Assembly: GCA_028713895.1 (NCBI GenBank)
Contig: JAQTNH010000001.1
Span: forward strand, 181,808 to 245,807
Length of the DNA: 64,000 nt
Direction of reading: 5' to 3'
From: Candidatus Nanoarchaeia archaeon
GTDB lineage: Archaea; Nanobdellota; Nanobdellia; CSSed11-243R1
Position numbers and translations under genes: made by a program. Below the pieces are notes generated by a model. That model was given only the letters and a program-made list of their open reading frames with translations, was not told the origin of the DNA and searched no databases. Within the stretch, counting starts at the first letter, position 1. The number at the start of each line of letters is the position of its first letter. Positions 10,595 through 49,435 of this stretch are shown one piece after another.

Positions 10595-10697
10595 GCCAAA
10601 TTAAACGAACTTTTGGATTATACATGTTTTGGTTTATACAAAATTTTATAAGTGGCGTTTTAGTAGCTTTATTTGGTGGGGTTCTTGAAAGCGTGCA

Positions 10698-11912
10698 ATG
10701 ATGAAAGACATTTATTTTTGCAAAACAGATGAAGAATGGCTCAAACATTCAGAGGAACTGGAATACCCCATACATGTTACGCCATGTTCTATAATAATAG
10801 ACTATGATGATGACAATTGCATTTACAGACAACTTGACAACATACCTGCTGTTGCACGGCTGAACCACATAAAACAGCTTGGCATTGCAAATGAATGCAG
10901 GAATCTGGCAGGCAGCGGCCAGACGCGTTATATTCATTCGCTGATTTGTGCAACAAAAATTGATTATCTGGCGCAGATGAATAACCTTAACAGAGAGCTC
11001 GCAGTCACAGCTGCAATGATGCATGACATGGCAACAACGCCGTATTCTGACTCGGTTTCAAAAAAACTTAAATTGGGCGATGAAGCGAATTTTGAAAGCG
11101 TGCTAAACAGCAGCACTGGGGCGCTTGCATTCCTGGACAAGCATAACATTTCAAAAAAAGAGCTCTGCGACCTTGTGACAGGAAAGGATAAATCCGTGCT
11201 GGGGCAGCTTGTCAGCAGCAAAGGCTCGATTGATGTTGACAGGTGGAGTTATACCATATATGACGCCCAAAGAATTGGAAAACTTTCTTCTGTACTCGGC
11301 AACCCTTATTGCCCAGACCCGTTCAAGTCAATGAAAATTATTGACAACACTGTTGTGTTTGAAGATGTCAACGAAGTACGAAAGTTCCTTGAGACAAGAG
11401 TGTACATGTTTGAATCTGTTTACAGGAACGACGAGCTCATGGCAAAGGAAGCTTTTGTCGGCGAGCTGGCAAAGGAAATGTGGGAAAAAGGGATTATTAA
11501 TAAGTCAAATATTTTCAGACTGGATGACAGCCAATTCGAAAGTTTATGCCACAGATATAATGAAGAACTTTCAGCCCGAATATTCCATGTAGGATATTTT
11601 GACAGTTATGGCAAACTGCCTGCCGGTGAAGAAGAGGTACGGCAATTCATGGCAGGCATCACAGACAGGCCTTTTGTCGTAAAAAAAGGGTTCTCCATGA
11701 ACCCCGCCACAGACACGCCTGTGCTGTTTAAGGGAAAAGTGAAGCCGTACAAAGAGATTGATATGCCGCATTCCAACAGCTTACAGATGAGAGCGGACTC
11801 TTTCAAATATACTGCAGTGTACGGGTTTGAAGAGGACTCAGAACTTGCAAAAGCTGTTCGCAAGGCAGAGGCAAAGTTCGGAAGAGTGAATGCCCCGACA
11901 GAAACTAAATAA
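10698..11912 (+). CDS. HD-domain phosphohydrolase, dNTP triphosphohydrolase (Dgt/SAMHD1)-like
   Basis: H...HD...D architecture: RYIHSL, MMHDMATTPYSDS (compare LLHDIGHxPFSH) and DVDRWSYTIYD (compare DxDRxDYLxRD). Confidence 0.6.
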   Translation: MMKDIYFCKTDEEWLKHSEELEYPIHVTPCSIIIDYDDDNCIYRQLDNIPAVARLNHIKQLGIANECRNLAGSGQTRYIHSLICATKIDYLAQMNNLNRELAVTAAMMHDMATTPYSDSVSKKLKLGDEANFESVLNSSTGALAFLDKHNISKKELCDLVTGKDKSVLGQLVSSKGSIDVDRWSYTIYDAQRIGKLSSVLGNPYCPDPFKSMKIIDNTVVFEDVNEVRKFLETRVYMFESVYRNDELMAKEAFVGELAKEMWEKGIINKSNIFRLDDSQFESLCHRYNEELSARIFHVGYFDSYGKLPAGEEEVRQFMAGITDRPFVVKKGFSMNPATDTPVLFKGKVKPYKEIDMPHSNSLQMRADSFKYTAVYGFEEDSELAKAVRKAEAKFGRVNAPTETK

Positions 11913-11935
11913 GTTCTGACAATCTTGATTTTACC

Positions 11936-12409
11936 ATGATAATCAGAACAGCAAAAATAAAAGATTTGCCAGCTGTGCTTAAACTTGATTTAATGCTGAA
12001 AAAAGACCAGAACAGATACAACAAGAAGTATTTTGCACTTGCAGGTGAAAAGAGCCTGGTAAAAGAAACAAAAAAGTTCCTGAAAGGAAAACTAAACAGC
12101 AAAAAATCGCGCATTTTTATTGCAGAAGCGAATGGAAAAATAATAGGAATCTGCATGGCTGAACTTGAAAAGCGGCCGCCAATATTCAAATACAGGAACA
12201 ATGGTTTTATTGAATCAGTTTATGTCCTGCCTGTGTTCAGAGGAAAAGGAATTGGAACCCTGCTGCTCAAAAGCGCAATTAAATGGCTGAAAAAGAACAA
12301 GATGTCTTTTATCACGCTTGCAGTCCATGAGCAAAATATTCCTGCAATAAATGCCTATAAAAAATCCGGATTTGTTAATTTTTTCAATAAAATGCTGAAG
12401 GTGTTATGA
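11936..12409 (+). CDS. GNAT-family N-acetyltransferase
   Basis: Acetyl-CoA-binding motif VLPVFRGKGIGTLLL and a conserved NIPAINAYKKSGF tail. Confidence 0.8.
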   Translation: MIIRTAKIKDLPAVLKLDLMLKKDQNRYNKKYFALAGEKSLVKETKKFLKGKLNSKKSRIFIAEANGKIIGICMAELEKRPPIFKYRNNGFIESVYVLPVFRGKGIGTLLLKSAIKWLKKNKMSFITLAVHEQNIPAINAYKKSGFVNFFNKMLKVL

Positions 12410-12410
12410 A

Positions 12411-13091
12411 ATGTTGGACTTTGACAAGCTGATTGACGAGCACCTGAAAAAGGAAAATCGTCCGAAAGGGATTGGGAGATATTATCCGAGCGAAGCAGGA
12501 ACCTGCATGCGAAAAATCTGGTACTCGTACAAGTTTCCCTCTGAAGTTGAGCCAGAGCTTCTCAAGATTTTTGAGATGGGAAACATAGTCCATAATTTTG
12601 TTGTTGAAGTTCTGAAGAGCGAAAAAGTCAAGGACATTGAGCTTCTGGAATCCGAATTCCCGTTCAGGGAAGAGGTTGAAGATTTCATGATTTCCGGCAG
12701 GATTGACAATCTCATCAAAATTAAGGCGAGCGGGAAGATTTACCTGGTCGAGGTCAAGTCAACGAAGAGCATTGATTATGTAAAGGAAGCTTCACCGCAC
12801 AATGTGCAGCAGCTCCAGCTTTACATGCACTTCACAGGGGTGCACAACGGCTTTTTGCTTTACATCGACAAGTCAAACCTGAAGACAAAGACTTTTGAAA
12901 TAGAGTACAGCGAGGAAGAGGCAAAGCGGATTCTTGAGCGCTTCAAGTCGCTGCACAAGCACCTTAAAGAAGAAAACCTTCCCGAAGCAGAGGGCAGAAG
13001 CCACAAGGAAATCAAATGGATGTGCGGCTACTGCGAATACAAGGACAGGTGCCACACAGACACGCCAAAGGCAAAACACGAAGAGGAATAA
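12411..13091 (+). CDS. Cas4-like PD-(D/E)xK nuclease with a 4-Cys cluster (DUF83/RecB-like)
   Basis: D...EVK (GRIDNLIKIKASGKIYLVEVKS), QxxxY (QQLQLYMHF), an N-terminal Cys (GTCMRK) and a C-terminal CGYCEYKDRC. No cas genes are nearby. Confidence 0.7.
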   Translation: MLDFDKLIDEHLKKENRPKGIGRYYPSEAGTCMRKIWYSYKFPSEVEPELLKIFEMGNIVHNFVVEVLKSEKVKDIELLESEFPFREEVEDFMISGRIDNLIKIKASGKIYLVEVKSTKSIDYVKEASPHNVQQLQLYMHFTGVHNGFLLYIDKSNLKTKTFEIEYSEEEAKRILERFKSLHKHLKEENLPEAEGRSHKEIKWMCGYCEYKDRCHTDTPKAKHEEE

Positions 13092-13538
13092 TTATTTTTT
13101 CATTTTCTTAATAATGCGCCAGGCAACTATCCCAAAGACAGCAAGGATTATCAGCAGTGTAACGAAAACAGCTATCTTGTCCTGGAAGTTTGTTGCGACG
13201 CCTTCCATCACAAGTATTGCGCCGGTAGCCAGCCCTGTTATGCGTATGAAGTTCTCGCTCAACAGCAGCCCGACAAGCAGTAATATGAATCCTATCGGCG
13301 CAAAGATGTAGAAGCGCATCTGGTTGTACGGCTTCATGGCGTCTTCATATGCCTTGTTGCATGAGTCCCAATATGCCTGGTTTTCAGCATCGGTTTTTGA
13401 CTCGACAGCAATAGGCTTGCAGTAAGTGTCATATCTTGGCTCTTCAATGAAGATGCTTGTCCCTACATTGACAAGCGCTACAAAAATAATTGTCATAACT
13501 ATGCTGGCCAGTATTGTGAGCCCGAGCTTGCTTACCAT
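13092..13538 (-). CDS. Membrane protein (3-4 TM)
   Basis: 148-aa hydrophobic ORF. Confidence 0.5.
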   Translation of the reverse strand: MVSKLGLTILASIVMTIIFVALVNVGTSIFIEEPRYDTYCKPIAVESKTDAENQAYWDSCNKAYEDAMKPYNQMRFYIFAPIGFILLLVGLLLSENFIRITGLATGAILVMEGVATNFQDKIAVFVTLLIILAVFGIVAWRIIKKMKK

Positions 13539-15363: not shown

Positions 15364-15389
15364 TCCTTTTGTTTTCTTATTTTTGTTTT

Positions 15390-15589
15390 TTTTCACTCTG
15401 AAAAAGTTTAAAAGGCAGTATCCTCTCAATTTAAGACAGGGAAATGTTGATGGTTGAGGTGGAAAAATGAATTCTAAGGGAGAGAGCAGACTAAATTTAA
15501 TTCTAAACAGGTTCGGAGCGTCAAAAGCATCCGCATCACTGAAGATTTTCCTCGCACTCATCATTTTCGGCATAGCGTCAGCTTTCCTC
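15390..15589. repeat. Copy 1 of a ~200-bp duplicated promoter plus signal-peptide module
   Basis: Near-identical to 21856..22054. It carries the TATA box, the Shine-Dalgarno site GAGGTGG, and a first 41 codons identical between the two giant genes. Confidence 0.9.
15406..15412 (+). promoter_or_regulatory. TATA box (TTTAAAA) of giant surface protein gene 1
   Basis: AAAGTTTAAAAGG lies 55 nt upstream of the ATG. GAGGTGG at 15456..15462 is the Shine-Dalgarno site. Confidence 0.5.
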
Positions 15590-18500
15590 CTCGGCGTTGT
15601 CTTCGCAACACACAGCTATTCGCCAGCCCCGGCAACAGTTCCAAACTGGACAAGTTCATGCGGCAACAGTGACGAAGGTCCAGGACCTGGAGATGCAATG
15701 ATAAACCTGACAAAAAATATCACGCTGACAGCAACAGGCAATGACACTTCATATCTCAACTTAACGCTCCTCAACTCAACTTCAAATTATACAATCCAAG
15801 ACTTCCTCACATTCTACCCGGCAAGCACGCTTAGCTGTTTAAAATCATCAGACACTTTAATTGAATGCACCAACACAACTGCAAATGTTCTGGCAGGGAC
15901 TGGAATGACAGTCCAGTTTAATACATCAGTCAACAGGAGCAGGCTTTGCATGGCAAACGGGCTGGACATGTTTTATTGGAATATATCAACCCTGGACAAT
16001 GAAACCAGTTTTAATTCTACGATATTGATAGACAAATTTGATTCACAAAGCCCAATGCCTTCAGGCATGATGATAACATCAACCAAATACACAAACGGTT
16101 CAAATTGGTTTGTAACAAGCCCGTATGATCTAACAGTTCCAACCGGGACAGACGGGAGCGGTTCAGGAATAAACACAAGCTCATGCGTGTATACAACGAA
16201 TATGAGCGGAATGCCTACTGTATGGACTGCAGCTACGTATGCAGACCCCAACTGTACAAAAACAGGAATAACAATTGCAGACGGTGTTTTGCACCAATCA
16301 AGTTTAGCTGTATCTGACATTGCAGGCAACCGTGGCGGATCTGGCTCATTAGACATTTATGGAGACGCATTAGCTCCAACAATCACATGGAATTCCCTTG
16401 CCAGCGCATACAAATTAGGCACAATAGTCACGCTTAATGTAACAGCCGCAGACGCGGGCTCAGGAGTCAATACGTCTGCGTTCACATTTAATGTTTCCTG
16501 CACAGGCAGCTCAAACGGCTCGCTTGGCGCGCTAACATGCACGCCGGGCTTGGTTCCCAAATCAACAGAATGCACACAGGCCTGGACAGCCCCAGATGCA
16601 GTTGCAAACTGCAACATAACTGCAAACGCAACAGATGCCCTCGGGCAGACAAATACAAGCATCGCAAACCTGAACATTGACTTTGGATGCGGAGACAACA
16701 TTTCATATTCAACCGTATTAATCCATAATATAACAGGATGCACCTCAGGCGCTCTTTTCATCAATACAAGCAATTTAGTTCTTGACTGTGACGGATATGC
16801 AATAGATGGATACGATGTCACAGAATCAGGCATTGAAATATCCCCAGGAATCGAAAATGTAACAATCCAAGACTGCATTATTTGGGGTTACACTGACACA
16901 GCCGGCATCGTGGGCAACGGACTTGGCAGCAGCGACGGCAACATAAGCATAGTATCCAACACATTTTATAGCAATGGACAGGCTATCCTCTTGAATGCAA
17001 CTTCAGCAGGAAGCAATGATTATGACATAAACAGCAATATAATCTACAACACAACAGATGCTTCAAAGGATGCAATCTATGTTGGAAGTTCGGGAAACAT
17101 CTACATAGACCACAATGAGATTTATAGTGCTGCCAGCACAGGAATATCTGTGCGTTCATCAAGCGGAACAATCTCAAACAATGTAATAAACAACACTCTT
17201 ACAGGATACGGCATTTCAACAAATGCATTCGCAGGAGTTATAGAACTCAATAATGTTTCGTATGCAGAACGCGGAATCAATTATTTTGCATCAGGCCCCA
17301 TTGCGAACATTACAAACAACACTTTGAATATCAATGACTACGGATTATACATCTCTTCAAGCATGGACATATCAGTATGGCATAATAATGTATATAATAA
17401 TACTATGAATGTTCTTTCAACTAGCCCCATTGAATTGTCCTATAGCAGCGAAGGAAACTACTGGGGACACGATGGATGCCCTGTGTTCAGTGCAGGGATA
17501 GATTCAAACTCAGCAACTGTAATCGACAGCTACGCTTACAATACATCAAGCGGATGGCTGACAACAACACCAGCGTTCTGCGCGCCGCAAATAATTACAT
17601 TTGCAGATGTTTTCAGTGGCTTTGCATATGCGAACATAGGAATCGGAGAATCAATGGCGATGCCATTTGTTCTGGATGTTTATGTTAACATAACAAACAC
17701 AACACCAGCATGGGTGAATCTTACAGGAGCTGGCGGCAGTTTGTGCATGGAGAGCTATGCGCCTAATGTAATGCTCAGCTATGAGGATTTGGGAGACGGC
17801 CCTGTATTCAACGCAGAGTGCACATTAAACAAAACAATACTTGCAACGCTGGGTCCACAGCATAACCTGACTGCGGTGGCATACTATGTGTCGTCACCAG
17901 CTATAACAAACACACAAAATTTCACATTGAATTCTGACTTTGAACGCCCAGTTATGAACTTTGGATGGTGGGACACAACAGGCGGGGACGGAACTCCTGT
18001 AAAATTTGTAAGCCCTGAGAACATGTTTAACAGGCAGGACATATTTTTCTCGCCAACAGACAATGCCGTACGGATAAGAGTTAATGTAACAGACAACAGC
18101 GTAGTGTCGTATGTGGAAGCAAATATGACTTCGCTTGACAGCGCAATGGCACTGACAGGCGGAAACTGCAGCGGAGTTGTAAACCTTACAGGTGTCGGCG
18201 GAAATTTCTGGGAATACAACTGCAGCCTTGGAGGCTTCAACAGAACGTTCATACAGGATGTCCTGAACGGAGGCACATTCAGCCCGGTATTCGAAGGACA
18301 GACAGACGTACAGATAGCAGCACATGATGTATTCGGAAACCCGACTGCAATAGCGTATAATACTTCTGAAATCACACCAGTGGAATGCGTGGGATACGTA
18401 GAGGGGCAATGCATGTCACTTGTTACACCGATAGTCATACATGACATTGAAGTGATGGGGCCGACAAGCATCAGCGCCATACATGACCAGATAGAAGAAT

Positions 18501-21500
18501 TTTCTGGCTGCATATGGGGAGCAAACTGCAGCGCATGCGGACCAGGAGAAACCCCTGAGACAGACGGATGTTATGAAGCTGCACAGCTTTGCTTCCTGTT
18601 TGGTTCGCAGACAACAAACTTCAGCAATGTTGCAAATTTCTCGGATGTAAACTTTTCGGTTGAGATGCAGGTAAACATGTCATGCCTTGAAGAAGCTGGA
18701 GGAATTGTGACTGACATACCCATGCCGACTGGACACACAACAATGATGAAAGTGAATTTCAGCAGCATTGACTTCAACAGCCAGGAGACTGCTGGAAAAC
18801 TTGCACAGCTTCCAGAAAACCTCAACGTGTACATAAGCCCGGCAGGAACTTTCGGGGACTCGTACATTATGCTGAACTCAAGCTACTTTGAGATGCTGAA
18901 TGCTTCCGCAACAATCGTGTTCTATCACTTGCCATTCATATCAGCGCCGTATGTTTACGGAATTGGGGGCGCAGTGACTGCCACACCGACAATAACATGG
19001 GCGCCATTCAATGATGACTTGTGGGACGGACGACCTGCTGGAAACCTTACATTCAATGTAGGTGGGTTCTCAGGATACGAGATAACAGACTCAATAAAGC
19101 CGACAGTGGTGATTGATGCGCCGGCAGCAGGCACAAACCTGACTGTTAACACAACATGGCTTAACATGACTTTGAACGGGACAGGCACACAGATAAGCAA
19201 TGTGCTTGTGTATGATGGAGCAGTACTTAAATACAATTACACAGCAAATGAAAGCATGTGCCTGAATGTAACGCTCGGTTCAGAGCTGTTCTTCTGCAAC
19301 ATTTCGCTTACAGGGCTGGCAGACGGAACGCACACACTGACTGTCCAGGCATTTGACTTTGGCGGAAACGAATCGCCGGGAAACAACAACACCACAACGC
19401 GGGCATTTATAATTGACTCGAGTGCGCCAAACATCACGATAACAGCGCCTGTGTCAAATGCAGTGCTTAACGCAGCAATGCTTCCGTACAATATAACCGG
19501 AACAGCAGCTGACAATTATGTGGGCATATCAAATATAACGTGGTATATAGACAATGCTGAACAGGGCACAGTTGACATGTCGCCACTGCCATTGTGGTGG
19601 ACAAGCTGGAACCCCTCAGACGGAGTGTACAACATTACTGCGCAGTCATGCGACTATTTCAGCAACTGCGCAAATGCGACAGCAGTAACACTGATAACAG
19701 TTGATGCGCTAAAACCAAAAATCTCAATAACCTACCCGACAAACAACCTTAACATCTCGTCATCAACGCTGGTAGTGAACACAACGACAAACGAGACAAA
19801 CCCGAACAGGCTTCTTGTTTATGTCAACGGTGCATTAACAAACAACACAACATACTCAAGCGGGGAACAAAACAACACAATTGTGCTTACCCTTGCAGAC
19901 GGAACATATGTTGTGTATGCAACTGCAACAGATACGGCAGGAAACTCCAATACAACATCCAATTACACTGTAATGATAGACACGACTGCGCCGACACTGA
20001 ACATTATAACACCAACTAATAATTCATATCAAAACCGCAACAATACAATAGTTAACTGGACAGTGAACGATACAAACTACAACTACACTTACATTGAACT
20101 TTACAATTCAACAGACGACCTCGCAGCGAACGGCACAGTCCCGTATACGTTTGGGCCATACACTTATCCGAACTATATAGTAAATTGGACAGATGTGCCA
20201 GACGAGGTTTACAGGCTTGTATTAGTTGCATACGACATAGTGGCAAATAACAGGACAGAAACGGTTTATAATATTACAGTTGACACGACTGCGCCAAAGA
20301 TTGCGGTATCGTACCCGGCAAACAACAGCAACTCAACCAGCTCGACTGTGACAATAAATGTGACAACAAACGAAACAAATGCAAACTCAATGAAACTGTA
20401 TGTTGGTGGCTTGCTTGTCAACACGACAAGTTACACGGCAGGAAACAACAAGGTAAAAACATTCACTGTCAGCATGGCAGACGGCAACAGAACATTCTAT
20501 GCGAATGCAACAGATTTGGCTGGGAACTACAATGCAACAGGAACGTATTACATAATAGTTGACACGACTGCGCCGGCAATGAGCAGCATATTTGCTGATA
20601 CAATCACAAATGAAAGCGCAGACATACACGTGACAACAAACGAGATAGCAAATTGCTCTGTTGATTTCGGAACTGATACGTCATACGGCTCGGTTGCAAG
20701 CTCAGTAAGCGGAAGCGGAGCGCTAAGCCTCGCAATTCCAAGCGCAGCCCAGGGAACATTGTATTATTACAGATGGAACTGCACTGATGTCTACGGAACC
20801 AGCGGAGTAAGCGCAGGATACACGTTCACAACAGCGAACTACCAGACAGATACGATTGTCAACACAACAACCACAAACATGACATTCAACTTTACAGAGG
20901 ACGGAACCAATACGACAAATGCAGGCGTTGAGATTTCGCTCAATGAAACAATTGATGCGACTGTCAAAATTGCAAAGGGAATAGCCCCGACTGCAAATTT
21001 CAGCGCGTCCGGCATAACAGGACTTGGAACGTACTACACAATTGAGTCAGATGAAATCAACAGCACAAATGCCGAGTGGCTGATGATAAAGCTGTATTAT
21101 GAGGACTCGCAGGTGCCAATCGGGATAAATGAATCCACACTCAGGCTGTACTGGTACAACACAACAAGTTCAGCATGGGAAATCATAACACCTGGCGGAG
21201 TTGATACAGTAAACAACTATGTCTGGGGTAACACAACGCACTTCAGCGAGTACACAATCGCGGGAGCAGCAGACACAGAGGTAACAGCACCAACATCACC
21301 AGGCGGCTCAAGCGGAGGAATACCTTCTGCGGGACTGACTCATGAAGTCAATCTTGACGTGCAGGTGACATACACGCAGGCAGGAATGGCTGTGAAGGAC
21401 AAGATAAACTTCACTCTTAACGGAGAGAAGCACGTGCTAACCCTTTCGTCAATGATGATTGACCAGATTGTTGTTGACATAAGCTCGCTTTCGCAGAGAA

Positions 21501-40940: not shown

Positions 40941-41050
40941 AACGTAGCGCTGCAATAAAGAAGTCAATAAAAGGAGTTTTAATATGAATTGCATGATTGG
41001 TACAATTAAATGGACAAAAGGTATAAATAGATGTACTTATTAGTAAAATA

Positions 41051-41602
41051 GTGAACGGTATGGTACAACAGTTTAGATTATCCAAAGTTTCGGGAAAATT
41101 TATTGAGATACTTCTGTGGCTTATCGGGCTAAATCGCGAAGAAATCTATGTTTCAGAGCTAAGCAAGGAACTAAAAATGTCAAAGTCAACAGTCATAAAA
41201 TGGCTTGAGGAATTAACCAAATGGGAGCTTGTAACCGAACGAAAGCGCGGAAACATGCATTATTACAGGATAAATGGAGAAAACCCAATTATAAAGCAAT
41301 TCAAAATCCTGCAAAGCGTTTCTGAATTGACTCCGCTCATGAAAAGCTTGAAAGGTATGGCTGAAGTTTATTTGTTTGGCTCTTCAGCGCGAGGCGAGGA
41401 CAGGCCAGACAGTGATTATGACATTCTTGTTGTAACCAAACTTAATTCAAATGAAGTCTTTAAGAAACTTAAGAATGAGGACAGACTCAAAAACAGGAAA
41501 ATAAGCCTGCTTATAGTAAAACCCTTTGAATATGCAGACATGGCAAAACATGATCCTGCACTTTACCAAAGGATAGAAATAGACAAAATCAGGCTGGTAT
41601 AA
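41051..41602 (+). CDS. Minimal nucleotidyltransferase (MNT) with N-terminal wHTH
   Basis: NTase motif LFGSSARGEDRPDSDYDILVV. Confidence 0.75.
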   Translation: MNGMVQQFRLSKVSGKFIEILLWLIGLNREEIYVSELSKELKMSKSTVIKWLEELTKWELVTERKRGNMHYYRINGENPIIKQFKILQSVSELTPLMKSLKGMAEVYLFGSSARGEDRPDSDYDILVVTKLNSNEVFKKLKNEDRLKNRKISLLIVKPFEYADMAKHDPALYQRIEIDKIRLV

Positions 41603-42075
41603 TGGACATAAACGAAGCAAAAGATGAAGGACTAATAAGTGATTTGCCTAAAGAAGAAAATGTTACAGACATTGTTGAAAAAGAAATAAAGTCTGCAGAG
41701 TATGACTTAAGCGAAGCAAAAGAAGGGTTCAGCAAGGGCAAGACAAAATGGCCTGTAGTACAGGCCTATTATGTTATATTTCATGCTGCAAGAGCGCTGA
41801 TGTATAAGTTCAAGCTGAAGGAAATAAAGCATGAGGGAATAGTTGTTTTCCTGGAAGAGAGGGTAAAAGTCGGAAAACTGAGAAACGAGTTTGTGACAAT
41901 ATTCAAATCGCTTAAATCAACTAGGGAAGACTCAAACTATGACAGCGATTTCAGCGAAGAACGCGCAAGAAAATCAATAGAAAGCGCAGAAGAGTTTTTG
42001 AAAGAAATGAAGGCGCAGCTGAGCGAAAAAAAGGCCGGAAAAACCGGCAAACAGTTTGTTTTCTTGTTGTTGTAA
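41602..42075 (+). CDS. HEPN-domain protein, partner of the MNT (MNT-HEPN module)
   Basis: Start overlaps the MNT stop. The HEPN-like motif is TREDSNYD. Confidence 0.65.
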   Translation: MDINEAKDEGLISDLPKEENVTDIVEKEIKSAEYDLSEAKEGFSKGKTKWPVVQAYYVIFHAARALMYKFKLKEIKHEGIVVFLEERVKVGKLRNEFVTIFKSLKSTREDSNYDSDFSEERARKSIESAEEFLKEMKAQLSEKKAGKTGKQFVFLLL

Positions 42076-42159
42076 AAGTCCAATAATTCTTTGAGTTTAG
42101 GGCTCTTTGGGCAGGGTTTTTGGGCTAAAAAGGGCACGCACTTATAACGAACGCAAGAA

Positions 42160-42513
42160 TTATCTGTCCTTATACCCAAATTTTTTATTATATTTTGGAT
42201 GATCAATGATGTCTAAAACAAAAGCAATGATTTCTATTTCGCTTTCATTGTTTGTAAGAGTATAAAGCATGCGCCAAAAATTCGGGAGCTCTATCCTGAA
42301 AAGGTTTGTGATGCCATATTTTTGTTTGTACTCTTCAGGTATGAGCTTCTTGGCTATCGGGTCACCATAGTGAGGATTAGATTTCAGAAATTCTACTTTG
42401 TTGTTCAGAGCATTAAGAATTATCTTTTCTGTTTTTGAGCCAGGCGCCTGTTCATTGAGGTATTTGTAAACTTCCTCTGCTTCAGGCGAAAGTATGACCC
42501 TTATTATCTTCAT
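42160..42513 (-). CDS. RelE/YoeB-like toxin candidate
   Basis: 117-aa basic protein. The C-terminal IEIIAFVLDIIDH pattern resembles YoeB/Txe. It overlaps the upstream small gene by 4 nt. Confidence 0.4.
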   Translation of the reverse strand: MKIIRVILSPEAEEVYKYLNEQAPGSKTEKIILNALNNKVEFLKSNPHYGDPIAKKLIPEEYKQKYGITNLFRIELPNFWRMLYTLTNNESEIEIIAFVLDIIDHPKYNKKFGYKDR

Positions 42514-42788
42514 AGTTCCACACCTGCTGCAATTGCCCTCTTAAGGTTCTGATTTGTATTGTGTATCCATGTTATGCCTTTCATTGTAATCAATATTTTA
42601 TTGCTTTTTTCAAGATATTCAAGAATTATTTTAAGGGTGTTGTGATTAATCTGTTTGGGAAGCCTTCGCTTAAGTTCAGCTATTGTAATTGCGCTTTCAT
42701 CCATGTTTGTCAGGACATTTTCCACCATGAAGACAGTATTAAGAGTAGGTGAATGTTCCAATTTTTCCATTTGAACCTGTTTTGCCAT
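42510..42788 (-). CDS. Putative antitoxin / small DNA-binding protein
   Basis: Start MAKQVQM. It is coupled to the toxin-like gene. Confidence 0.35.
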   Translation of the reverse strand: MAKQVQMEKLEHSPTLNTVFMVENVLTNMDESAITIAELKRRLPKQINHNTLKIILEYLEKSNKILITMKGITWIHNTNQNLKRAIAAGVEL

Positions 42789-42920
42789 ATTTATCACTCC
42801 GTATCATTTAGTTATTAATAAATAAGTAATAGTTACTATTTTATATAGTTACTCTTCGTTTGAGGTTCCAGTAATTTCTTGAGTCCTGGGGGCACGCTTC
42901 GTTAACTTTAAAAACCAATA

Positions 42921-42934
42921 TATACTGCAGGATA
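42921..42934 (+). promoter_or_regulatory. Palindromic box TATACTGCAGGATA (copy 3)
   Basis: Flanked by the TATA box TTTAAAAA (42907) and the leader motif (42940). Confidence 0.5.
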
Positions 42935-42939
42935 TAAGT

Positions 42940-42950
42940 GGTGGGGTTCT
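42940..42950 (+). promoter_or_regulatory. GGTGGGGTTCT leader motif
   Basis: See the motif family. Confidence 0.55.
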
Positions 42951-42973
42951 AGAATTAAATAAGCTGATGTTAA

Positions 42974-43717
42974 ATGAAAATCAAATTTCATGGCGTATCA
43001 AACGGCTATGCTTACGAAAACCAAAATTTGGGGTGTATTTGTTTAGATGATAAAATCCTTTTAGACTGTGGCATAACAAGTTTTCCACGACCTTATTTTG
43101 ATAGCTTAGATGCATTATTTTTGTCTCATGGACATAAGGATCACATAGTTGGTATAAGCTCGCTTACATTGGGCTTAGCTGTTGAAACAGACAGAAAAAC
43201 AAGAAGGGATAGGGATTTTTGCATCTATGTTCCTGCAGGCATAAAAGACAAAATAGAAGACCGTATTGATAAAACATACAAAGACAAAGTAAAGATATTT
43301 GAAAAGAATCCAGGGGATAAATTCAGATTTTTGGATGAATATGACATAAAAACTGTCAAAGTAGAGCACAAGGGAGATTGTTTAGCATACAGATTTGAGA
43401 AGGATGGAAAAAGTTTTGTTTATACTGGCGATGCTGTACCTTCTCAAGAAGTAATTGACCTTTCAAAAAATGTTGATGTGCTGATACATGAAGCCAGCTT
43501 TGTAAATAAGTTTAGAGAAGTGGCAAATAGCTGGAAACACTCGACTTCTGAACAAGCAGCAGAGGTTGCACAAAAGTCTGGTGCAAAAACACTGATTTTA
43601 ACATTAATCTCACCTCATGTAAGGCTGAATAATATGGAAGAATACCTGACTGAAGCACAAAATGTCTTTCTTGGCAAAATTATTATTGCATACGAAGGCC
43701 TGGTTTATGAGTTATAG
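42974..43717 (+). CDS. Metallo-beta-lactamase-fold hydrolase
   Basis: HxHxDH motif (HGHKDHIVG) and downstream His/Asp residues. Confidence 0.8.
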   Translation: MKIKFHGVSNGYAYENQNLGCICLDDKILLDCGITSFPRPYFDSLDALFLSHGHKDHIVGISSLTLGLAVETDRKTRRDRDFCIYVPAGIKDKIEDRIDKTYKDKVKIFEKNPGDKFRFLDEYDIKTVKVEHKGDCLAYRFEKDGKSFVYTGDAVPSQEVIDLSKNVDVLIHEASFVNKFREVANSWKHSTSEQAAEVAQKSGAKTLILTLISPHVRLNNMEEYLTEAQNVFLGKIIIAYEGLVYEL

Positions 43718-43787
43718 TGATGCTGTTTGATAATCCAGTAATTCTTTGAGTCCTGGGGGCACGGTTCGTTAACTTTAAAAACGACTG

Positions 43788-43801
43788 TATACTGCAGAAT
43801 A
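43788..43801 (+). promoter_or_regulatory. Palindromic box TATACTGCAGAATA (copy 4)
   Basis: TATA box at 43774 and leader motif at 43808. Confidence 0.5.
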
Positions 43802-43807
43802 TAGGTT

Positions 43808-43818
43808 GGTGGGGTTCT
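43808..43818 (+). promoter_or_regulatory. GGTGGGGTTCT leader motif
   Basis: See the motif family. Confidence 0.55.
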
Positions 43819-43832
43819 AAGAGGGAAAATAA

Positions 43833-44258
43833 ATGAATGGTGATAAGATGGATTACAGGCTGCCTAACAGGTATGTTAAAGCTACAGACCACAACAAAGA
43901 ACTGGAAGTGAATATGGACGCGGAAAGAATTCTTAAAATATGGTGTTCTGGCTGCAGCAAAAATAAGAAATGCGATTACATGCCAACATTGGTTTCAATG
44001 ATTGGCGTCACTGAAGTTGATAAAGCAGACGAGGAAAATTTGATGGAAACTATAACATTCATATACAGGCCTGATATGGACAGCAGCAGAGCTCCCTTTT
44101 GCAAGAATGCAGACGAGAAATCGATTGTACGTTTTGAGGAAGCTTCTGAAAGATTACGCAAGGAAATCGAGCTTAAAGAAAATTACAAGCGATCCCAAAA
44201 AGATAAATATCTTGGCTTAGAGATTAAAATAATTGGAGACACAGTAAACGATGAGTAG
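43833..44258 (+). CDS. WCSGC-motif protein, paralog 1 (141 aa)
   Basis: Shares the YRLP..YV...WCSGC...C...C pattern with the next gene. Confidence 0.55.
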   Translation: MNGDKMDYRLPNRYVKATDHNKELEVNMDAERILKIWCSGCSKNKKCDYMPTLVSMIGVTEVDKADEENLMETITFIYRPDMDSSRAPFCKNADEKSIVRFEEASERLRKEIELKENYKRSQKDKYLGLEIKIIGDTVNDE

Positions 44259-44268
44259 GTGGGGTTCT
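44258..44268 (+). promoter_or_regulatory. GGTGGGGTTCT leader motif (starts at the stop codon of the previous gene)
   Basis: 13 nt upstream of the ATG at 44282. Confidence 0.5.
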
Positions 44269-44281
44269 TGGAGTGGGATAA

Positions 44282-44704
44282 ATGAGCAATGACAAAAAAA
44301 ATTACAGACTGCCTGAAGGGTATGTTGAAACTGACGGAGATTGGGGAGTAGACTATAAAACAGCAGTTAATGTGCTCAGGAACTGGTGTTCTGGCTGCAA
44401 GAAAAAGGAAGATGGAAATTGTGAAACTGTGATAGACCTTGTAGGTTTATTGAGTATGGAAGAAATCCCTGGCGTAGCTTATGAGTTCATGACACGAATC
44501 AAGCCTAAGAAGGGTGGAAGAAGCATTCTTTACTGCACAAAGGCTGACAGCCTATCAATTGCATATTTTGAGGAAAGGCAGAGGGACTTAGAAAGAGAAA
44601 AAAGAAAATTAAAGGCTGCTATCGATGAAGGCTTTGCCGAAGCAGAAAAAGAATTAGCAAAAGGAAGAGAGGCAAGACTAAGAAAGTTGGGATTAAAGAA
44701 ATAG
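44282..44704 (+). CDS. WCSGC-motif protein, paralog 2 (140 aa)
   Basis: Paralog of 43833..44258. Confidence 0.55.
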   Translation: MSNDKKNYRLPEGYVETDGDWGVDYKTAVNVLRNWCSGCKKKEDGNCETVIDLVGLLSMEEIPGVAYEFMTRIKPKKGGRSILYCTKADSLSIAYFEERQRDLEREKRKLKAAIDEGFAEAEKELAKGREARLRKLGLKK

Positions 44705-44721
44705 ATGGAGAGTGATGAAAG

Positions 44722-44976
44722 ATGGAAAAACCATATCAAATAAAACCATATCAAGTTTTACAAGAATATCAAAGTTTACACGAAGGAATCAAACCTTTAA
44801 AACATGCTTCGAAGTATGCCCCAATAGTAGTAGAACTGGGAGAAACTGTAACTTTAAGCAGTTTAGGCATAGACACTTCCAGTAGACTGGCGTTTCTATG
44901 CAGCTTGCCTTCAGATACGGTAATGCATACAGACAGAGATGGACATGTTACATGCACATTCTCTATAGAGAAATAA
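44722..44976 (+). CDS. Hypothetical protein (84 aa)
   Basis: ORF. Confidence 0.4.
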   Translation: MEKPYQIKPYQVLQEYQSLHEGIKPLKHASKYAPIVVELGETVTLSSLGIDTSSRLAFLCSLPSDTVMHTDRDGHVTCTFSIEK

Positions 44977-44998
44977 ACAAATCTTGAGAGGGATATAA

Positions 44999-45481
44999 AT
45001 GAACAAAACGCTAACTGAAATTTTAAAAAAGGACCCGAAGGATGTAACTATCCAAGAAAAAGAGTGTCTGGATTTAGAAGAAATCAGTAAGTTAGCTGAT
45101 AGATTTAATAAGCAGTACGAAAGTCTCATACAGCAAGCCAATGAGCCATACAAAGACAAGGAAAATGTAAGTTTGGTGTTCTGCGATGGAAAACTTGTTA
45201 AGGCTTACACTATGCAACGTTATGATATCCCTTTTGATGAGATTTCTAAAATTGAACAAGAACAGGGCAAAGCATGTTATGTAGTTGAGATGATAAACAA
45301 ACCGTCTGAAGACGACATCCGTATTTTTGAACCCCAAACAGGCATAAGAGACTCCTACAAAAACCTTAATGATGCATATAAAAAAATGGGTGACGATATG
45401 CATACTTTTGAGCAGGAATTGCGTGAAGGAATCAAAGAAGTGCGTAAGGAAGTTAAATCGCTTGAAAAGAAGCAAAAATAA
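44999..45481 (+). CDS. Hypothetical protein (160 aa)
   Basis: ORF. Confidence 0.5.
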   Translation: MNKTLTEILKKDPKDVTIQEKECLDLEEISKLADRFNKQYESLIQQANEPYKDKENVSLVFCDGKLVKAYTMQRYDIPFDEISKIEQEQGKACYVVEMINKPSEDDIRIFEPQTGIRDSYKNLNDAYKKMGDDMHTFEQELREGIKEVRKEVKSLEKKQK

Positions 45482-45525
45482 AATTTTCTTAAAATGTTCG
45501 CTGAATATACATTAAACGAAGTTTT

Positions 45526-45828
45526 TTAATGCGATTTTTGATGTTTTTTATGGTTTTTTTGAACCTTTATTATTACTTTGCTTGCTTTTCCTGCTTCCAA
45601 GGCTGGCAAAAGGTGCGACAGGAACTGTTCTGCAGTCATCTTTCGGACTGTGCCATTGGTGGTCTGAGTCCATTGGCCTTTGACTTTCTTGTATTTCTGT
45701 TTCCAGCCGCTTTTCTTGATAATGAGATAGATCGTGCATTCGTCGTTCTTCATGATTTTAGCTCGTGTTAGACACACACGTTTACTTGTTTTGACTCTGC
45801 TTGCAGGGACAATGTTTTTGCCTGGCAA
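45526..45828 (-). CDS. Hypothetical basic protein
   Basis: ORF. The real start may be the internal MKNDEC. Confidence 0.3.
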   Translation of the reverse strand: MPGKNIVPASRVKTSKRVCLTRAKIMKNDECTIYLIIKKSGWKQKYKKVKGQWTQTTNGTVRKMTAEQFLSHLLPALEAGKASKVIIKVQKNHKKHQKSH

Positions 45829-46127
45829 GTCCTGTTTGTGCAGTCTGAGTCATCATTGCAGTAATCAGTGCAAATTCCTATGCTTTCATTTGCTTTTTGA
45901 GTGCAAATGCCTTCAGCGAAATTCAGGCATTCAACATAGCATATCTGGCCTGAGCTGCATTCATCATTTATGTGGCATTCTCCTGGATTATGCACATAGA
46001 CATGGTGCTCAACAGCTGTGAAATTTGGCTTAACAATCATAACGAGAGCGACAAATGCAAGAACAATAACAGCAAAAAGAATGTTTCTAGAACAAAAGAT
46101 GCATTTGAAATCTAATTTTTTAGCCAT
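45768..46127 (-). CDS. Secreted Cys-rich small protein (signal anchor plus about 12 Cys)
   Basis: Start MAKKLDF preceded by GGAGGG. The mature part is NPGECHINDECSSGQICYVECLNFAEGICTQ...CTDYCNDDSDCTNRTC. Confidence 0.5.
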   Translation of the reverse strand: MAKKLDFKCIFCSRNILFAVIVLAFVALVMIVKPNFTAVEHHVYVHNPGECHINDECSSGQICYVECLNFAEGICTQKANESIGICTDYCNDDSDCTNRTCQAKTLSLQAESKQVNVCV

Positions 46128-46150
46128 AGTTATCCCTCCAAAACATCCTG

Positions 46151-46303
46151 TCAAAGCTTGAATCTTTTTGGCTTCTTTTCTGTTTCCTCTTCTAATACAA
46201 GAGCGCCTACATAGCCGCATTTATTACATTGGTATTGGCCAAAATTGCCGCCCATGTAGAGGTCTATCTCTTTTGAGCGGCATTTTGGGCACATCTTTGC
46301 CAT
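46151..46303 (-). CDS. 50-aa zinc-ribbon micro-protein (CPKC...CNKCGY)
   Basis: Not in the ORF track. The arrangement TAATATG couples it to the upstream gene. Confidence 0.45.
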   Translation of the reverse strand: MAKMCPKCRSKEIDLYMGGNFGQYQCNKCGYVGALVLEEETEKKPKRFKL

Positions 46304-46304
46304 A

Positions 46305-46544
46305 TTATTTGCAGCAATTGTTGTTGCAGCTGCAGTGGCCTTTCTTCATCAGTGCAAATGCTATCACTAGCAATGCAAGAATCCACCATGCGATGCCATC
46401 AAAGATGATTCCTTTTGTGTTAAGTATCCACACAAGCAAGCCTGCGAAGACAAGTCGCGCTAAAAAGCCGCCGTGGCAGCCGCAGCACATTCCTTGCCAG
46501 GACCACACCATCATTTTTGGTTCAATTTTTGATTTTTTTGCCAT
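46305..46544 (-). CDS. Small membrane protein with CCGCHGG and CSCNNNCC motifs
   Basis: Start MAKKSK preceded by GAGGTG. Two TM helices. Confidence 0.5.
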   Translation of the reverse strand: MAKKSKIEPKMMVWSWQGMCCGCHGGFLARLVFAGLLVWILNTKGIIFDGIAWWILALLVIAFALMKKGHCSCNNNCCK

Positions 46545-46587
46545 ATTTTTACACCTCAAAGTTTTAAGATTTGCTCGAATCTTTTAA

Positions 46588-46854
46588 TCATGATTCGCGT
46601 TCAATTTCGCGGGCTTTTGTTTTTACGTCTACTACAACTTCGCGCTCTTTGTTAAGCACGCCAGTAAATTCTTCCAAATGTTTTATGCCTATGTCTGCCT
46701 GGTTTTTTGCATCCTCAAGAAGCTTTAAATTGTTCTTTTCAATAGCGCGATCTATTATAGTTTTGATGGTTTTGAGATTATTTGCTGCTTTTTTAATCTC
46801 TTCAAAGCCTATTCCCTCAAGCGCCTGAAGGTTCTTTGGCAGTTCTTTTGGCAT
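46588..46854 (-). CDS. Hypothetical protein (88 aa, start MPKELPK)
   Basis: ORF-track call trimmed to the Shine-Dalgarno-supported start. Confidence 0.4.
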   Translation of the reverse strand: MPKELPKNLQALEGIGFEEIKKAANNLKTIKTIIDRAIEKNNLKLLEDAKNQADIGIKHLEEFTGVLNKEREVVVDVKTKAREIERES

Positions 46855-46858
46855 GTAA

Positions 46859-47575
46859 TCACCCTTTTTTAATTTTGTAGTATATTTTCTTTCCAATGGC
46901 TTCTTTTTCCAGGGCGCCCAGCTCTGCGAGCCTGTTCAGCCTGAATGAAGCTGTTGAACGGGATAAATTGATATAGTCAGCGAGCTGGTTTGCTGTGACG
47001 CGCTCCTGGCGGCCGACCCAGTCAATAACTTCCTTGTCCTTGATTGTGAGCTGGCTTATGTGAGTTATTGCGCTGTCCAGAGTCTGTGAGGAAACTCCTT
47101 TTTCAGCTATTTCGTCCTTTGTTCGCTGCAATAGGTCAAGTATAAAGTCTAATTTCTCTAAATCATTGAGTTTTTCAAGGCGATGGTCCATTGACTTAAG
47201 AACATGATTTAATTCCTCTAAAATCTGGGAATTTATGATTTTAACCTGTGATAAAGGATGCTGCTGCGCTGCCTTTATAGTGTCTTCCCACTGCTTTATT
47301 GCTATGTGCGAAGCTTCTTCCTGCAGCTTTAGCTTTGTTGGCTCGTGTTGAACAGTTGATTGGCGCTCCTGCCTTATTTTGGCTAAATCTGCCTCAAAAT
47401 CATGTTTTAAGTGTTCGTCAACAGGTTCGTCAGTTGTTGATTGCTGTTCAACAGAATTTTTTTGCTCGTCTAGAAGGTAGGGCCTAACTATTTTTTCAGA
47501 ATCCATCTTTTCTACCGGAAGGCTGTCTTCAGGCTTGCTGCTGAAAAGACGTTTTAAAGCGTCTAATATCCCCAT
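46859..47575 (-). CDS. Transcriptional regulator with C-terminal wHTH and N-terminal coiled coil
   Basis: The wHTH segment is LADYINLSRSTASFRLNRLAELGALEK. Confidence 0.6.
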   Translation of the reverse strand: MGILDALKRLFSSKPEDSLPVEKMDSEKIVRPYLLDEQKNSVEQQSTTDEPVDEHLKHDFEADLAKIRQERQSTVQHEPTKLKLQEEASHIAIKQWEDTIKAAQQHPLSQVKIINSQILEELNHVLKSMDHRLEKLNDLEKLDFILDLLQRTKDEIAEKGVSSQTLDSAITHISQLTIKDKEVIDWVGRQERVTANQLADYINLSRSTASFRLNRLAELGALEKEAIGKKIYYKIKKG

Positions 47576-47639: not shown

Positions 47640-47940
47640 CGCGCGAGCGCACCTGTTGGCGCAGTTCCAACACATCCAACACTTTAGTCAACAACTTCGA
47701 CACATTCGACACATCATCCAACACATTCGACAGTCAACACATCCAACACTTCCAACATATGTTGAACACATGCTTAATTTGCCTATTTTTTCCTTCAAAT
47801 TACGTGGTTTTAGTGTTCAACAGATTCGTCAAAAACCCAACAGATTCAACAGTCAACACATTCGACAGTCAACAAGTTCGACAACAAGTTCGACACATTC
47901 GTCAACAAGTTCGACAGATGGTCCAACACATAGATTAGAG
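47640..47940. repeat. Iteron-like degenerate direct-repeat array with a 9-bp inverted repeat
   Basis: More than 20 copies of short units (TTCGACAC/G, ATCCAACAC, GTCAACAC/AAG). The inverted pair is GTTGAACAC (47762) and GTGTTCAAC (47815). Confidence 0.6.
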
Positions 47941-48108
47941 CTGAAGTATAGTATTACATTATTATTCAATATTGAAATCAAATAAAGTGAGATGGGTTTT
48001 TAGGAGTAAAAAGAGAGGGTGGGCCTAAGTTGGTAAGAGGTGAGAATAAGGGGTCAAAAAGTGAGGGTTCTAAGAGAGATGTTTGAAAAGAAGGCAAAAA
48101 TGGCGAGA

Positions 48109-48456: not shown

Positions 48457-48548
48457 ATTTACACCTGTAAAAAGATAAGAATATGGTAGAATATAAAGCT
48501 TATTATTAGTCAAATTGCCTAATAGCTGTGTTTTAATGCATTTTAGCG

Positions 48549-48851
48549 TTATCCAGTTGTTTTCATTACAGCTGTACAAACATGACTTACGCACTTGCAG
48601 GAACCTGCGCCGCAATCCATTGTTCCATTACTGCATTCCATTGTGCAAAAAGTATCCATACAATTTGGCGTTTGGTCAACTGGAACACAGGAAGTTGAAT
48701 GACAGCACTGGGCTTCAACGCAATCTAAATCTTCAGTGCATTCAGGCTGCTGGGCTTCGATTTGATTTAAAACAGGTTCGTACTTATTAAACAAAAGTAA
48801 GGCTGCAACCAAAGCAACCACGATTACAAAAAAAGCTAACCAAATTTTCAT
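48549..48851 (-). CDS. Secreted Cys-rich small protein, paralog of 45768..46127
   Basis: Signal anchor, then QQPECTEDLDCVEAQCCHSTSCVP...CKCVSHVC with about 16 Cys. Confidence 0.55.
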   Translation of the reverse strand: MKIWLAFFVIVVALVAALLLFNKYEPVLNQIEAQQPECTEDLDCVEAQCCHSTSCVPVDQTPNCMDTFCTMECSNGTMDCGAGSCKCVSHVCTAVMKTTG

Positions 48852-48883
48852 AATAAAAAAGAAACATTCAAAGAATAAAAAGA

Positions 48884-49336
48884 TTATGACGCAGAGGATT
48901 TACCCTGTTTTTCAGGCTTAAGCGATGGAAGCGGTATTGGCGAAGGAAGCCCTACTTTTGCTGCCTGTTCAATCGCTTCTATCTGGCTTTTATTCATTGC
49001 CGCGTTAAGTATCCCAACCATCAGTTTGGGCTCAAGTTTTTTATTCTTTTTCCATTCATCAACCACTTTGCTAATCTCGTCTTTAGTGTTCACATAAACT
49101 ATTTCGCCTTTAACCAAAATCTCTCCGAGGTTCTGGTCTTTTGGCTCTTTCAGTTCATATTTGACAGCATAAACAAAGTCTATTATGACGCCATTATTTT
49201 CCCTGCCAAAAGATTTAAGCTCGCGAACATCATCAATTTTAATGTCGTTTGAGCGTGCACTTGGCTTTATAATATCCGCTTTGATAATATTTCTAACCGC
49301 TTTGGTTTCTCTTAATGTAATATTAACAATTGGCAT
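48884..49336 (-). CDS. Hypothetical protein (150 aa)
   Basis: ORF. Confidence 0.45.
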   Translation of the reverse strand: MPIVNITLRETKAVRNIIKADIIKPSARSNDIKIDDVRELKSFGRENNGVIIDFVYAVKYELKEPKDQNLGEILVKGEIVYVNTKDEISKVVDEWKKNKKLEPKLMVGILNAAMNKSQIEAIEQAAKVGLPSPIPLPSLKPEKQGKSSAS

Positions 49337-49424
49337 TTTGTATCACCAGCTTGAGCAAGCTTTTGAGAATTTATAAAATTAACTAAATCAGCAGATTTTT
49401 AAATGAGCCATTTCTTGCATTTCT

Positions 49425-49435
49425 GGTGGGGTTCT
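49425..49435 (+). promoter_or_regulatory. GGTGGGGTTCT leader motif
   Basis: TATA box TTTTAAAT lies 26 nt upstream. The ATG is at 49449. Confidence 0.55.

Follow-up and report, generated by a model that had tools for sequence, protein, structure and literature searches.

What is the role of an 11-nucleotide sequence that stands, exactly the same each time, just upstream of the start codons of eight genes in one region of an archaeal genome? The region is a 64,000-nucleotide stretch of DNA from a Candidatus Nanoarchaeia archaeon (positions 181,808 to 245,807 of contig JAQTNH010000001.1, assembly GCA_028713895.1), called the window below, and the sequence is GGTGGGGTTCT, which had been noticed in the bare sequence of the window and predicted to mark a dedicated regulon. 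On the evidence of its sequence distribution it looks like a selected, lineage-specific cis-element, shared by some eight transcription units that are accessory or belong to mobile elements, and kept in related metagenome contigs. That it acts as single-stranded RNA, as an element of the 5' leader that governs how ribosomes load or how stable the mRNA is and that labels a small regulon of accessory genes, is a proposition to which we give an even chance. A leader cis-element that defines a small regulon is a known kind of thing; this motif is so far undescribed, and we found no description of such a leader motif in the literature that we searched.

Occurrence and conservation of the 11-mer

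An exact search of the window returns the eight copies of GGTGGGGTTCT of the original prediction at the same coordinates, all on the + strand and all upstream of start codons; 0.03 copies are expected in the window, and none of 100 shuffled sequences had eight or more. The window contains no copy with one mismatch, and copies with two mismatches are about as frequent as chance would have them (7 versus 8.6 expected), so within the window the motif is all-or-none. It is the top-ranking 9-, 10- and 11-mer that is not of low complexity, and its reverse complement is absent from the window. All eight copies lie in the non-coding DNA, which makes up no more than 21% of the window, except for the first G of the copy at 44258, which is a stop-codon base. 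The 16 kb of flanking DNA of the same genome have no copy (window and flanks together are ~80 kb, the genome being roughly 1 Mb in size, with a longest contig on record of 956 kb), and an oligomer oriented genome-wide, such as Chi, KOPS or a DNA uptake sequence, was rejected in view of this and of the non-coding, gene-oriented location of the copies.

The first copy (10675–10685) ends 12 nucleotides (nt) 5' of the ATG of an HD-domain gene (10698–11912) and is divergent from xerA (9788–10594, - strand); its TATA box, TTTATAAG at 10645–10652, ends 22 nt upstream of the motif. The second (28554–28564) has its box, TTTTTAAA at 28524–28531, at the same distance of 22 nt, and is followed after 15 nt, within which there is a separate Shine-Dalgarno (SD) sequence AAGGTGA, by the ATG of an ORFan of 131 amino acids (28580–28975). 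The third (31574–31584) lies 14 nt before the ATG of a 45-amino acid membrane peptide (31599–31736), with the TATA box TTTATAAA at 31543–31550 ending 23 nt upstream, and the fourth (34240–34250) lies 10 nt before the ATG at 34261 of an 87-amino acid gene, the first in an operon of five ORFan genes (34261–36791); here the TATA box (34210–34217) ends 22 nt upstream and a palindromic operator (34224–34237) precedes the motif. The fifth and sixth copies each form the 3' end of a larger promoter cassette. One (42940–42950, cassette 42858–42950, TATA box at 42907–42914 ending 25 nt upstream) is 23 nt from the ATG of an MBL-fold phosphodiesterase gene (42974–43717), and the other (43808–43818, cassette 43725–43818, which spans the entire intergenic gap, TATA box at 43774–43781 ending 26 nt upstream) is 14 nt from the ATG of the first of the two WCSGC paralogs (43833–44258). 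The seventh copy (44258–44268) begins with the final base of the stop codon of that paralog and lies 13 nt before the ATG of the second (44282–44704); its sole TATA-like box is weak (ATTAAAAT, score 5.2), and this copy is probably operon-internal, or served by a weak internal promoter at most. The eighth (49425–49435), with the TATA box TTTTTAAA at 49396–49403 ending 21 nt upstream, lies 13 nt before the ATG of an 88-amino acid, C-terminally anchored protein (49449–49715), and a separate SD sequence GATGGTGA stands between the two. The degenerate copy reported at 48063 is also there, as GAGGGTTCTAAGAGAG (48063–48078, + strand); it is similar to the leader of the sixth copy, has no TATA box, is followed by an open reading frame (ORF) of 17 codons, and is probably, to judge from this sequence, a decayed remnant. 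These distances to the ATG agree with the 10–23 nt (12–15 nt at six of the eight sites) that had been reported; the range is indeed narrow, though "fixed distance", as it was then called, is too strong a term.

These eight sites are not eight independent events. Those at 10675 and 28554 belong to a diverged duplication, in which each lies just downstream of a methyltransferase paralog (74% nucleotide identity) and the flanks are 76% identical over 42 nt. The paralogs are class-I methyltransferases (8913–9782 and 27647–28522), each followed by a motif-bearing promoter, and xerA is interposed after the first copy only. The sites at 31574, 44258 and 49425, on the other hand, share nothing with the other sites beyond the 11-mer itself. 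The motif is exact upstream of both WCSGC paralogs, whose proteins are 29% identical, and exact within duplications that are otherwise 74–84% identical; such preservation while flanks and paralogs have diverged bears the mark of purifying selection acting on just these 11 bases.

In JGI metagenome contigs, a scan for the operator followed by the motif yielded six related stretches, L148 through L153, with a G+C content (GC) of 36–38%. They contain seven distinct exact copies of GGTGGGGTTCT, three of which (L149:1564, L150:1134 and L151:9858) the search pattern had not picked out, and two one-mismatch variants. The latter, GGTGGGGCTCT and GGTGAGGTTCT, are the only variants seen in promoter context and each is a single transition; GGTGGGGCTCT (L151:8412) abuts its ATG, and there the motif is at a normal SD distance. 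Over the resulting 17 sites (eight in the window and nine in the metagenome) the ATG is 10–15 nt away in 13, and the two bases after the motif are "not C" and then a purine in 16. The motif is exact in these contigs despite unrelated downstream genes. Both L148 and L152 encode a XerA protein that is 66% identical to that of the window and is likewise divergently adjacent to a motif copy, and L150 has kept the motif with a 59% identical orthologue of the 87-amino acid gene at 34261. In L150 this orthologue is the second gene of an operon, and its exact motif (L150:1134) is operon-internal, 8 nt past the upstream stop codon and without a TATA box (score -1.2); nucleotide homology with the window site at 34240 sets in at precisely base 1 of the motif.

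The proteins of the window are present, 100% identical, in the metagenome-assembled genome (MAG) GCA_028713185.1 ("Candidatus Nanoarchaeia archaeon", DPANN) and are also found in the Logan assemblies of SRR22315508 and SRR22315509. The closest homologues of the HD protein are 44–48% identical and come from genomes of 35% GC, and a homologue search with the WCSGC protein, an ORFan, was empty, which indicates that close relatives of this chromosome are absent from the protein databases. A pattern of TATA box plus motif gave, among the matches listed for GTDB genomes, single chance matches in unrelated bacteria; in IMG/VR it gave 20 singletons, none of them convincing, and the sole Nanoarchaeota match (L080) has only a 4-codon ORF behind the motif. 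The pattern of operator plus motif had no match in IMG/VR.

Promoter geometry and the promoter cassette

A TATA position-weight matrix trained on the motif-free promoters of the window places a strong TATA 8-mer (score at least 8.8, background P at most 0.009) with its end 21–26 nt upstream of the motif at seven of the eight window sites, and over all sites a box ends 21–28 nt upstream in 15 of 17. In the leaderless genes of this genome a box of the TTTATAAA or TTTAAAAA type ends 20–24 nt before the start codon. Since the spacing from TATA box to motif is that from TATA box to leaderless start codon, the transcript would open with the ~11 nt of the motif, to within ~3 nt, and the motif should be at, or no more than ~3 nt from, the transcription start predicted from promoter geometry. 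The TATA-like box that had been noted upstream of the motif is thus strong at all window sites except 44258, where it is weak, and the earlier suggestion that the motif forms the very 5' end of transcripts, as a conserved leader or initiator, agrees with promoter geometry and does not extend to L150:1134, which has no TATA box, or readily to 44258. Between 31519 and 31598 one TTTTATAAA box appears to serve both directions; the GTG (at 31518) of a leaderless P-type ATPase gene (28978–31518, - strand) is 24 nt away from it, and the + strand motif of the 45-amino acid peptide gene 23 nt.

The motif is absent from the internal cistrons of the HD operon and of the five-gene operon, which suggests that it is usually present once per transcript or cassette. 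In three other short-leader genes transcription apparently begins at a GGTG, which is their SD sequence. From these sequences the GGTG head appears to be common to other short-leader mRNAs of this genome, and what is specific to the motif is GGGTTCT and its unusual spacing from the ATG. Separate SD-like runs, GGTGA or GGTGG, follow the motif at 28554, 31574 and 49425, which bears out the earlier remark that SD sites of their own come after it. Prediction gives the leader motif no structure. In folding, the eight leaders do not surpass shuffled sequences (z from -0.9 to +1.7) and have no common helix, and Rfam at gathering thresholds finds only a tRNA-Phe in the window and no family at the motif; a structured leader, a riboswitch and a known RNA family were rejected on these two null results. 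A two-tier G-quadruplex, possible in six of the eight leaders and impossible in those at 10675 and 42940, was dropped.

The sites at 34240, 42940 and 43808 share a larger cassette of ~60–100 base pairs (bp) that the original prediction had missed. It consists of the TATA box, 10 nt, the near-palindrome TATACTGCAGRATATA, 0–4 nt and the motif. The 16–18-bp near-palindrome, TATA(T)ACTGCAG(A/G)ATATA, is present in four window promoters and is kept in L148–L153, and its sequence is probably that of the operator of a dimeric repressor. At 34224–34237, between TATA box and motif, it includes the 14-mer TATACTGCAGGATA, which recurs at 38383–38396 and 42921–42934 and has a variant, TATACTGCAGAATA, at 43788–43801. 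A group of small conserved genes at 42160–42797, with orthologues that are 88–92% identical in L151, are candidates for the gene of the operator's repressor. The fourth window copy of the cassette (38358–38413, + strand) has TATA box and operator and lacks the motif, and so is a natural "motif-less" control; its predicted transcript begins GGTGCTATAAAG-ATG, i.e. directly with GGTG-N8-ATG (gene 38411–38737). Among homologous cassettes the offset of the motif from the TATA box and operator varies by 3–4 nt.

Between the three window sites and L148–L153 the cassettes are 80–93% identical, and the proteins encoded downstream mostly have no BLASTP match to one another. This recalls the PeSL elements, promoter-terminator cassettes of T4-type phages (PMC2839356, PMC4122927), in that short regulatory cassettes outlast the ORFan genes they serve, are repeated in hypervariable mobile regions, and coincide with module boundaries. 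The PeSL element has a bacterial sigma-70 early promoter and a stem-loop, whereas the cassette here has an archaeal TATA box, a palindromic operator and the 11-mer, and the 11-mer, unlike PeSL, also occurs alone, outside cassettes and at chromosomal genes. It is the TATA-operator-motif cassette only that can be called a PeSL-like mobile promoter cassette; the five window sites that have just the 11-mer cannot.

Two other repeated sequences were seen. A 15-mer, ATTAAACGAACTTTT, lies just upstream of xerA (10598–10612) and is found in the opposite orientation in L148 (~2640–2660); it is similar to GTTCGTTAAC, found ahead of the TATA box of the promoter cassettes. A non-coding element of ~60 nt, CAGTAATTCTTTTGGGTCCCAGCTCTCTTAGGGGCAGG..., at 40548–40609 is repeated in the related contigs (L149:368–427 and 1203–1229; L150:1945–2011 and 2725–2934; L151:145–222, 959–998 and 1874–1937) and has a relative immediately before the TATA box of the cassettes that begin at 42858 and 43725. 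Possible identities for it are a hairpin of the terminator kind and one end of a small mobile element.

Possible modes of action

If the motif acts in the transcript, it would be recognised as a single strand, on the 5' margin of the ribosome-binding region. With its GGUGG head it could dock the anti-SD sequence of the 30S subunit too far from the AUG to initiate, as a standby or decoy site, and its invariant GGGUUCU tail could be read by a dedicated trans-acting factor, a putative protein or RNA; head and tail together would determine how ribosomes load and/or how stable the mRNA is throughout this set of genes and in this way co-regulate them. At several promoters such control at the RNA level would be combined with transcriptional control through the palindromic operator. 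The exact motif at L150:1134, internal and without a TATA box, and the copy at 44258 with its weak box suggest that the element is position-independent within the RNA and not confined to +1.

A canonical SD sequence it is not, as had been said from the start. The GGTGG head can pair with the canonical anti-SD sequence CACC(U), but GGTG is 17–30 nt from the ATG at all eight window sites and in 16 of the 17 overall, which is too far, a second, separate SD-like run usually follows, and GGGTTCT is invariant without being complementary to the canonical 16S tail. Complementarity to the 3' end of 16S rRNA, once proposed as a check, proved unexceptional: the duplex with the canonical tail, which was used here in place of the organism's own 16S, has -12.2 kcal/mol, and 6% of composition-matched shuffles equal it. 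The best 16S duplex also requires the loop adenines of helix 45. These adenines are dimethylated and hence unable to pair. A resemblance to a tRNA 3' end or primer-binding site (TGG-T-GGGGTTCT as the complement of ...AGAACCCC-A-CCA) was set aside as a low-probability lead; the single tRNA in the sequence analysed (Phe, 5' GGGTTTG) does not fit.

Several findings weigh against the single-stranded leader element. The ~110 kb of related sequence contain no antisense or wobble-complementary partner, only the motif's own opposite strand; the 16S pairing is that just described; and the case for action in the RNA depends mainly on L150:1134, with the ambiguous 44258 beside it. The motif that abuts its ATG at L151:8412 indicates that the motif need not keep its distance from the ATG. 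The two upstream regions that we read of HD-gene orthologues (44–48% identical) in other DPANN contigs are without the motif, and one of the two, L139/L140, is apparently leaderless. The transcription starts are predicted rather than mapped, and the extent of the regulon is judged from the ~80 kb covered here. The regulon and the regulator's binding site of the original prediction thus survive as an interpretation of the pattern, and the analysis brought to light no regulator, antisense RNA or special rRNA complementarity.

Control at the level of DNA is one rival. A double-stranded operator, or a specialised initiator or initially transcribed sequence that defines a transcriptional regulon, fits the 15 of 17 sites that lie 21–28 nt past a strong TATA box and on the predicted start, the restriction of the motif to the first cistron of the HD and five-gene operons, and the presence of winged-helix regulators nearby (46859–47575, 41051–41602, 42510–42797 and a MarR-like gene in L152). 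We nevertheless think it unlikely. The exact copy at L150:1134 has no promoter and that at 44258 a weak one, the motif is neither palindromic nor repeated, unlike most archaeal operators, and at the cassette promoters the gap between TATA box and transcription start is already taken by a separate palindromic operator, relative to which (and to the TATA box) the motif shifts by 3–4 nt between homologous cassettes; nor would anything at the DNA level explain why the distances to the ATG cover so narrow a range and why an SD-like run always comes next. The 5' position also suits a different idea, that of a 5'-terminal mini-ORF, in which a GTG at motif positions 2–4 starts Met-Gly-Phe(-stop) and ribosomes re-initiate at the nearby ATG. 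That GTG is at the TATA distance of leaderless start codons, a stop codon comes right after TTC at four of the eight window sites (six of the 17 overall), and the mini-ORFs of 44258 and 28554 would stop at the main ATG or shortly ahead of it. Fifteen exact copies without one synonymous change, however, speak for a constraint on nucleotides and not on a peptide; the stops arise automatically from a T and a purine-rich SD-like run (TGA, TAG, TAA, TGG), at 10675 and 34240 the ORF runs for 18 codons out of frame into the gene, and an operon-internal copy cannot be leaderless. We regard the mini-ORF as most improbable.

In enterobacteria a specialised factor, RfaH, is recruited at ops, a 12-nt leader element of horizontally acquired operons (PMC5995543, PMC7819879). 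Like the present motif, ops is a near-invariant, oriented, G-rich element of about 12 nt in the untranslated leaders of a few accessory operons, with few copies per genome, and it is read as a single strand, as we propose for the motif. An ops-like signal, in which the non-template DNA strand or the nascent RNA recruits a factor of the Spt5/NusG type that licenses horizontally acquired or foreign operons, could in principle also work at internal positions; all the same we consider it quite improbable here. No NusG/Spt5-like paralog is present among the ~60 proteins scanned or in the Pfam lists (~100 kb, ~8% of the genome), and the motif lies at about +1 to +11, before promoter escape is complete, whereas ops lies tens to hundreds of nt into the transcript at a pause site. 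The ops operons are long and typically lack an SD sequence, while most of the present target units are of one to five short genes, to which antitermination would bring little; the promoters here are of the archaeal TATA/TFB type, and the motif is unrelated in sequence to ops beyond a GG.GG start. Another explanation is a recombination junction: the 11-mer or its cassette would be a boundary for the exchange, insertion or deletion of gene modules, comparable with PeSL elements or, more loosely, with the boundaries of integron cassettes, its invariance providing the homology for crossover. Cassettes that are 80–93% identical ahead of unrelated genes agree with this, as do the arrangement in L150 of motif-geneA-motif-geneB where the window has motif-geneB, with homology that begins exactly at the motif, the direct-repeat orientation of all copies, the xerA gene that adjoins a motif copy in the window and in L148/L152, and the PeSL precedent (PMC2839356, PMC4122927). 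Yet a crossover site needs no fixed relation to a TATA box or an ATG, the five window sites that share the 11-mer alone have too little homology for efficient exchange, and the MAG contigs are 99.95–100% identical to the window with no rearranged variants. The recombinase is an ordinary XerA of 268 amino acids (NCBIfam XerA score 259.6, cut-off 220; integron integrase 219, cut-off 265), and there is no inverted-repeat attC-like partner, the reverse complement being absent; an integron of the attC/IntI kind was rejected on these two grounds. A PeSL-type junction describes the larger cassette well and the lone 11-mers not, and as a general account of the motif it is in our estimate very improbable.

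Two further systems offer partial parallels to the proposed leader element. In the control of phage anti-defence genes by acr-aca operons the Aca repressor binds a promoter palindrome, and Aca2 also binds mRNA. The likeness lies in small accessory or anti-defence genes (among the targets here is that of an Apyc1/RNase Z-like phosphodiesterase), a strong promoter with a palindromic operator, and small helix-turn-helix (HTH) genes adjacent; the differences are that no Aca homologue was identified here, that the 11-mer is outside the palindrome, and that the system is archaeal. In the eukaryotic 5' terminal oligopyrimidine (5'TOP)/TCT-initiator system a fixed sequence at the mRNA 5' end ties the transcription start to post-transcriptional co-regulation, and the likeness does not go beyond analogy; the two differ in domain of life, in sequence and in machinery. 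A wider reading of the element is conceivable and, taken as a whole, doubtful: GGUGGGGUUCU would be a clade-wide leader "tag" of DPANN archaea and their mobile elements, with one sequence-specific reader acting on RNA or single-stranded DNA and switching fast-evolving accessory genes en bloc. These would include counter-defence genes (the Apyc1-like phosphodiesterase) and would be located on the chromosome or on plasmid- or virus-like islands, the control would be an archaeal counterpart of the ops/RfaH or TOP type, and the tag would double as a junction of ORFan cassettes.

Target genes and genomic setting

The genes behind the motif are an accessory set, as was originally said, and most of them are ORFans. 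The HD phosphohydrolase-like gene heads an operon with a GNAT gene and a Cas4-like nuclease gene, and the two WCSGC paralogs are followed by two further small ORFs on the same strand (44722–44976 and 44999–45481). The MBL hydrolase (42974–43717) matches the NCBIfam models of RNase Z (3.6e-38) and of a cyclic-nucleotide-degrading phosphodiesterase (2.3e-20), both below cut-off, and Anti-Pycsar_Apyc1 appears in its Pfam list. The enzyme is a short phosphodiesterase similar to RNase Z and, going by these matches, may be a counter-defence enzyme carried by an island. PADLOC recognises just a Cas4-like nuclease domain in the target genes, and PHROGs only the MBL hydrolase and a weak Rep-O-like match.

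The low-GC region at ~36–48 kb (36–39%) contains a HEPN/nucleotidyltransferase pair, a winged-helix protein and iteron-like repeats. The HTH-nucleotidyltransferase (MNT) and HEPN genes (41051–42075) are a typical toxin-antitoxin module. The winged-helix protein, of 238 amino acids (46859–47575, - strand), has a weak match to the PHROG "replication initiation O-like", and upstream of its gene and divergent from it are dense direct repeats of CAACA(C/A)(A/G)TTCGACA and relatives (47650–47930); repeats and protein look like the iterons and initiator of an integrated plasmid or virus. The motif copies at 42940, 43808 and 44258 are within 39044–46659, which in the MAG is a separate, 100% identical contig of 7.6 kb (JAQTPB010000032.1), while the adjoining MAG contigs end at ~39051 and start at ~48080; repeats could have caused this break, as could a mobile island at a different copy number. 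The site at 34240 lies just upstream of this segment, where GC begins to drop. Genes of the island and ordinary chromosomal genes alike are led by the motif, so the set is partly on a plasmid- or virus-like island and partly chromosomal. Elsewhere in the window are two tandem giant surface-protein genes (15368–27635; 2119 and 1889 amino acids) with beta-helix and Big domains and an S8 peptidase; their promoters and 5' ends are 92% identical and their C-terminal parts 84% identical, the second has internal repeats of ~267 nt (24197–25950), and no paralog of the giant surface protein was found outside the window.

To our knowledge almost nothing is known of gene regulation in the DPANN archaea, an uncultured group with unmapped promoters and leaders. 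In this setting the motif is sharply defined, selected and easily scanned for, and it connects chromosomal accessory genes with those of mobile elements. If a dedicated reader exists, the motif would be a handle by which to find it, for example through phylogenetic profiling of motif-bearing genomes, and a co-regulated gene set of these symbionts could be defined from sequence alone; an RNA partner would be recognisable as a conserved RNA complementary to AGAACCCCACC. Should it prove to be only a strong-promoter and leader module, it would still be useful for the annotation of gene starts and operons in the clade. The promoter cassette, for its part, suggests how ORFan genes move and come to be expressed in tiny genomes.

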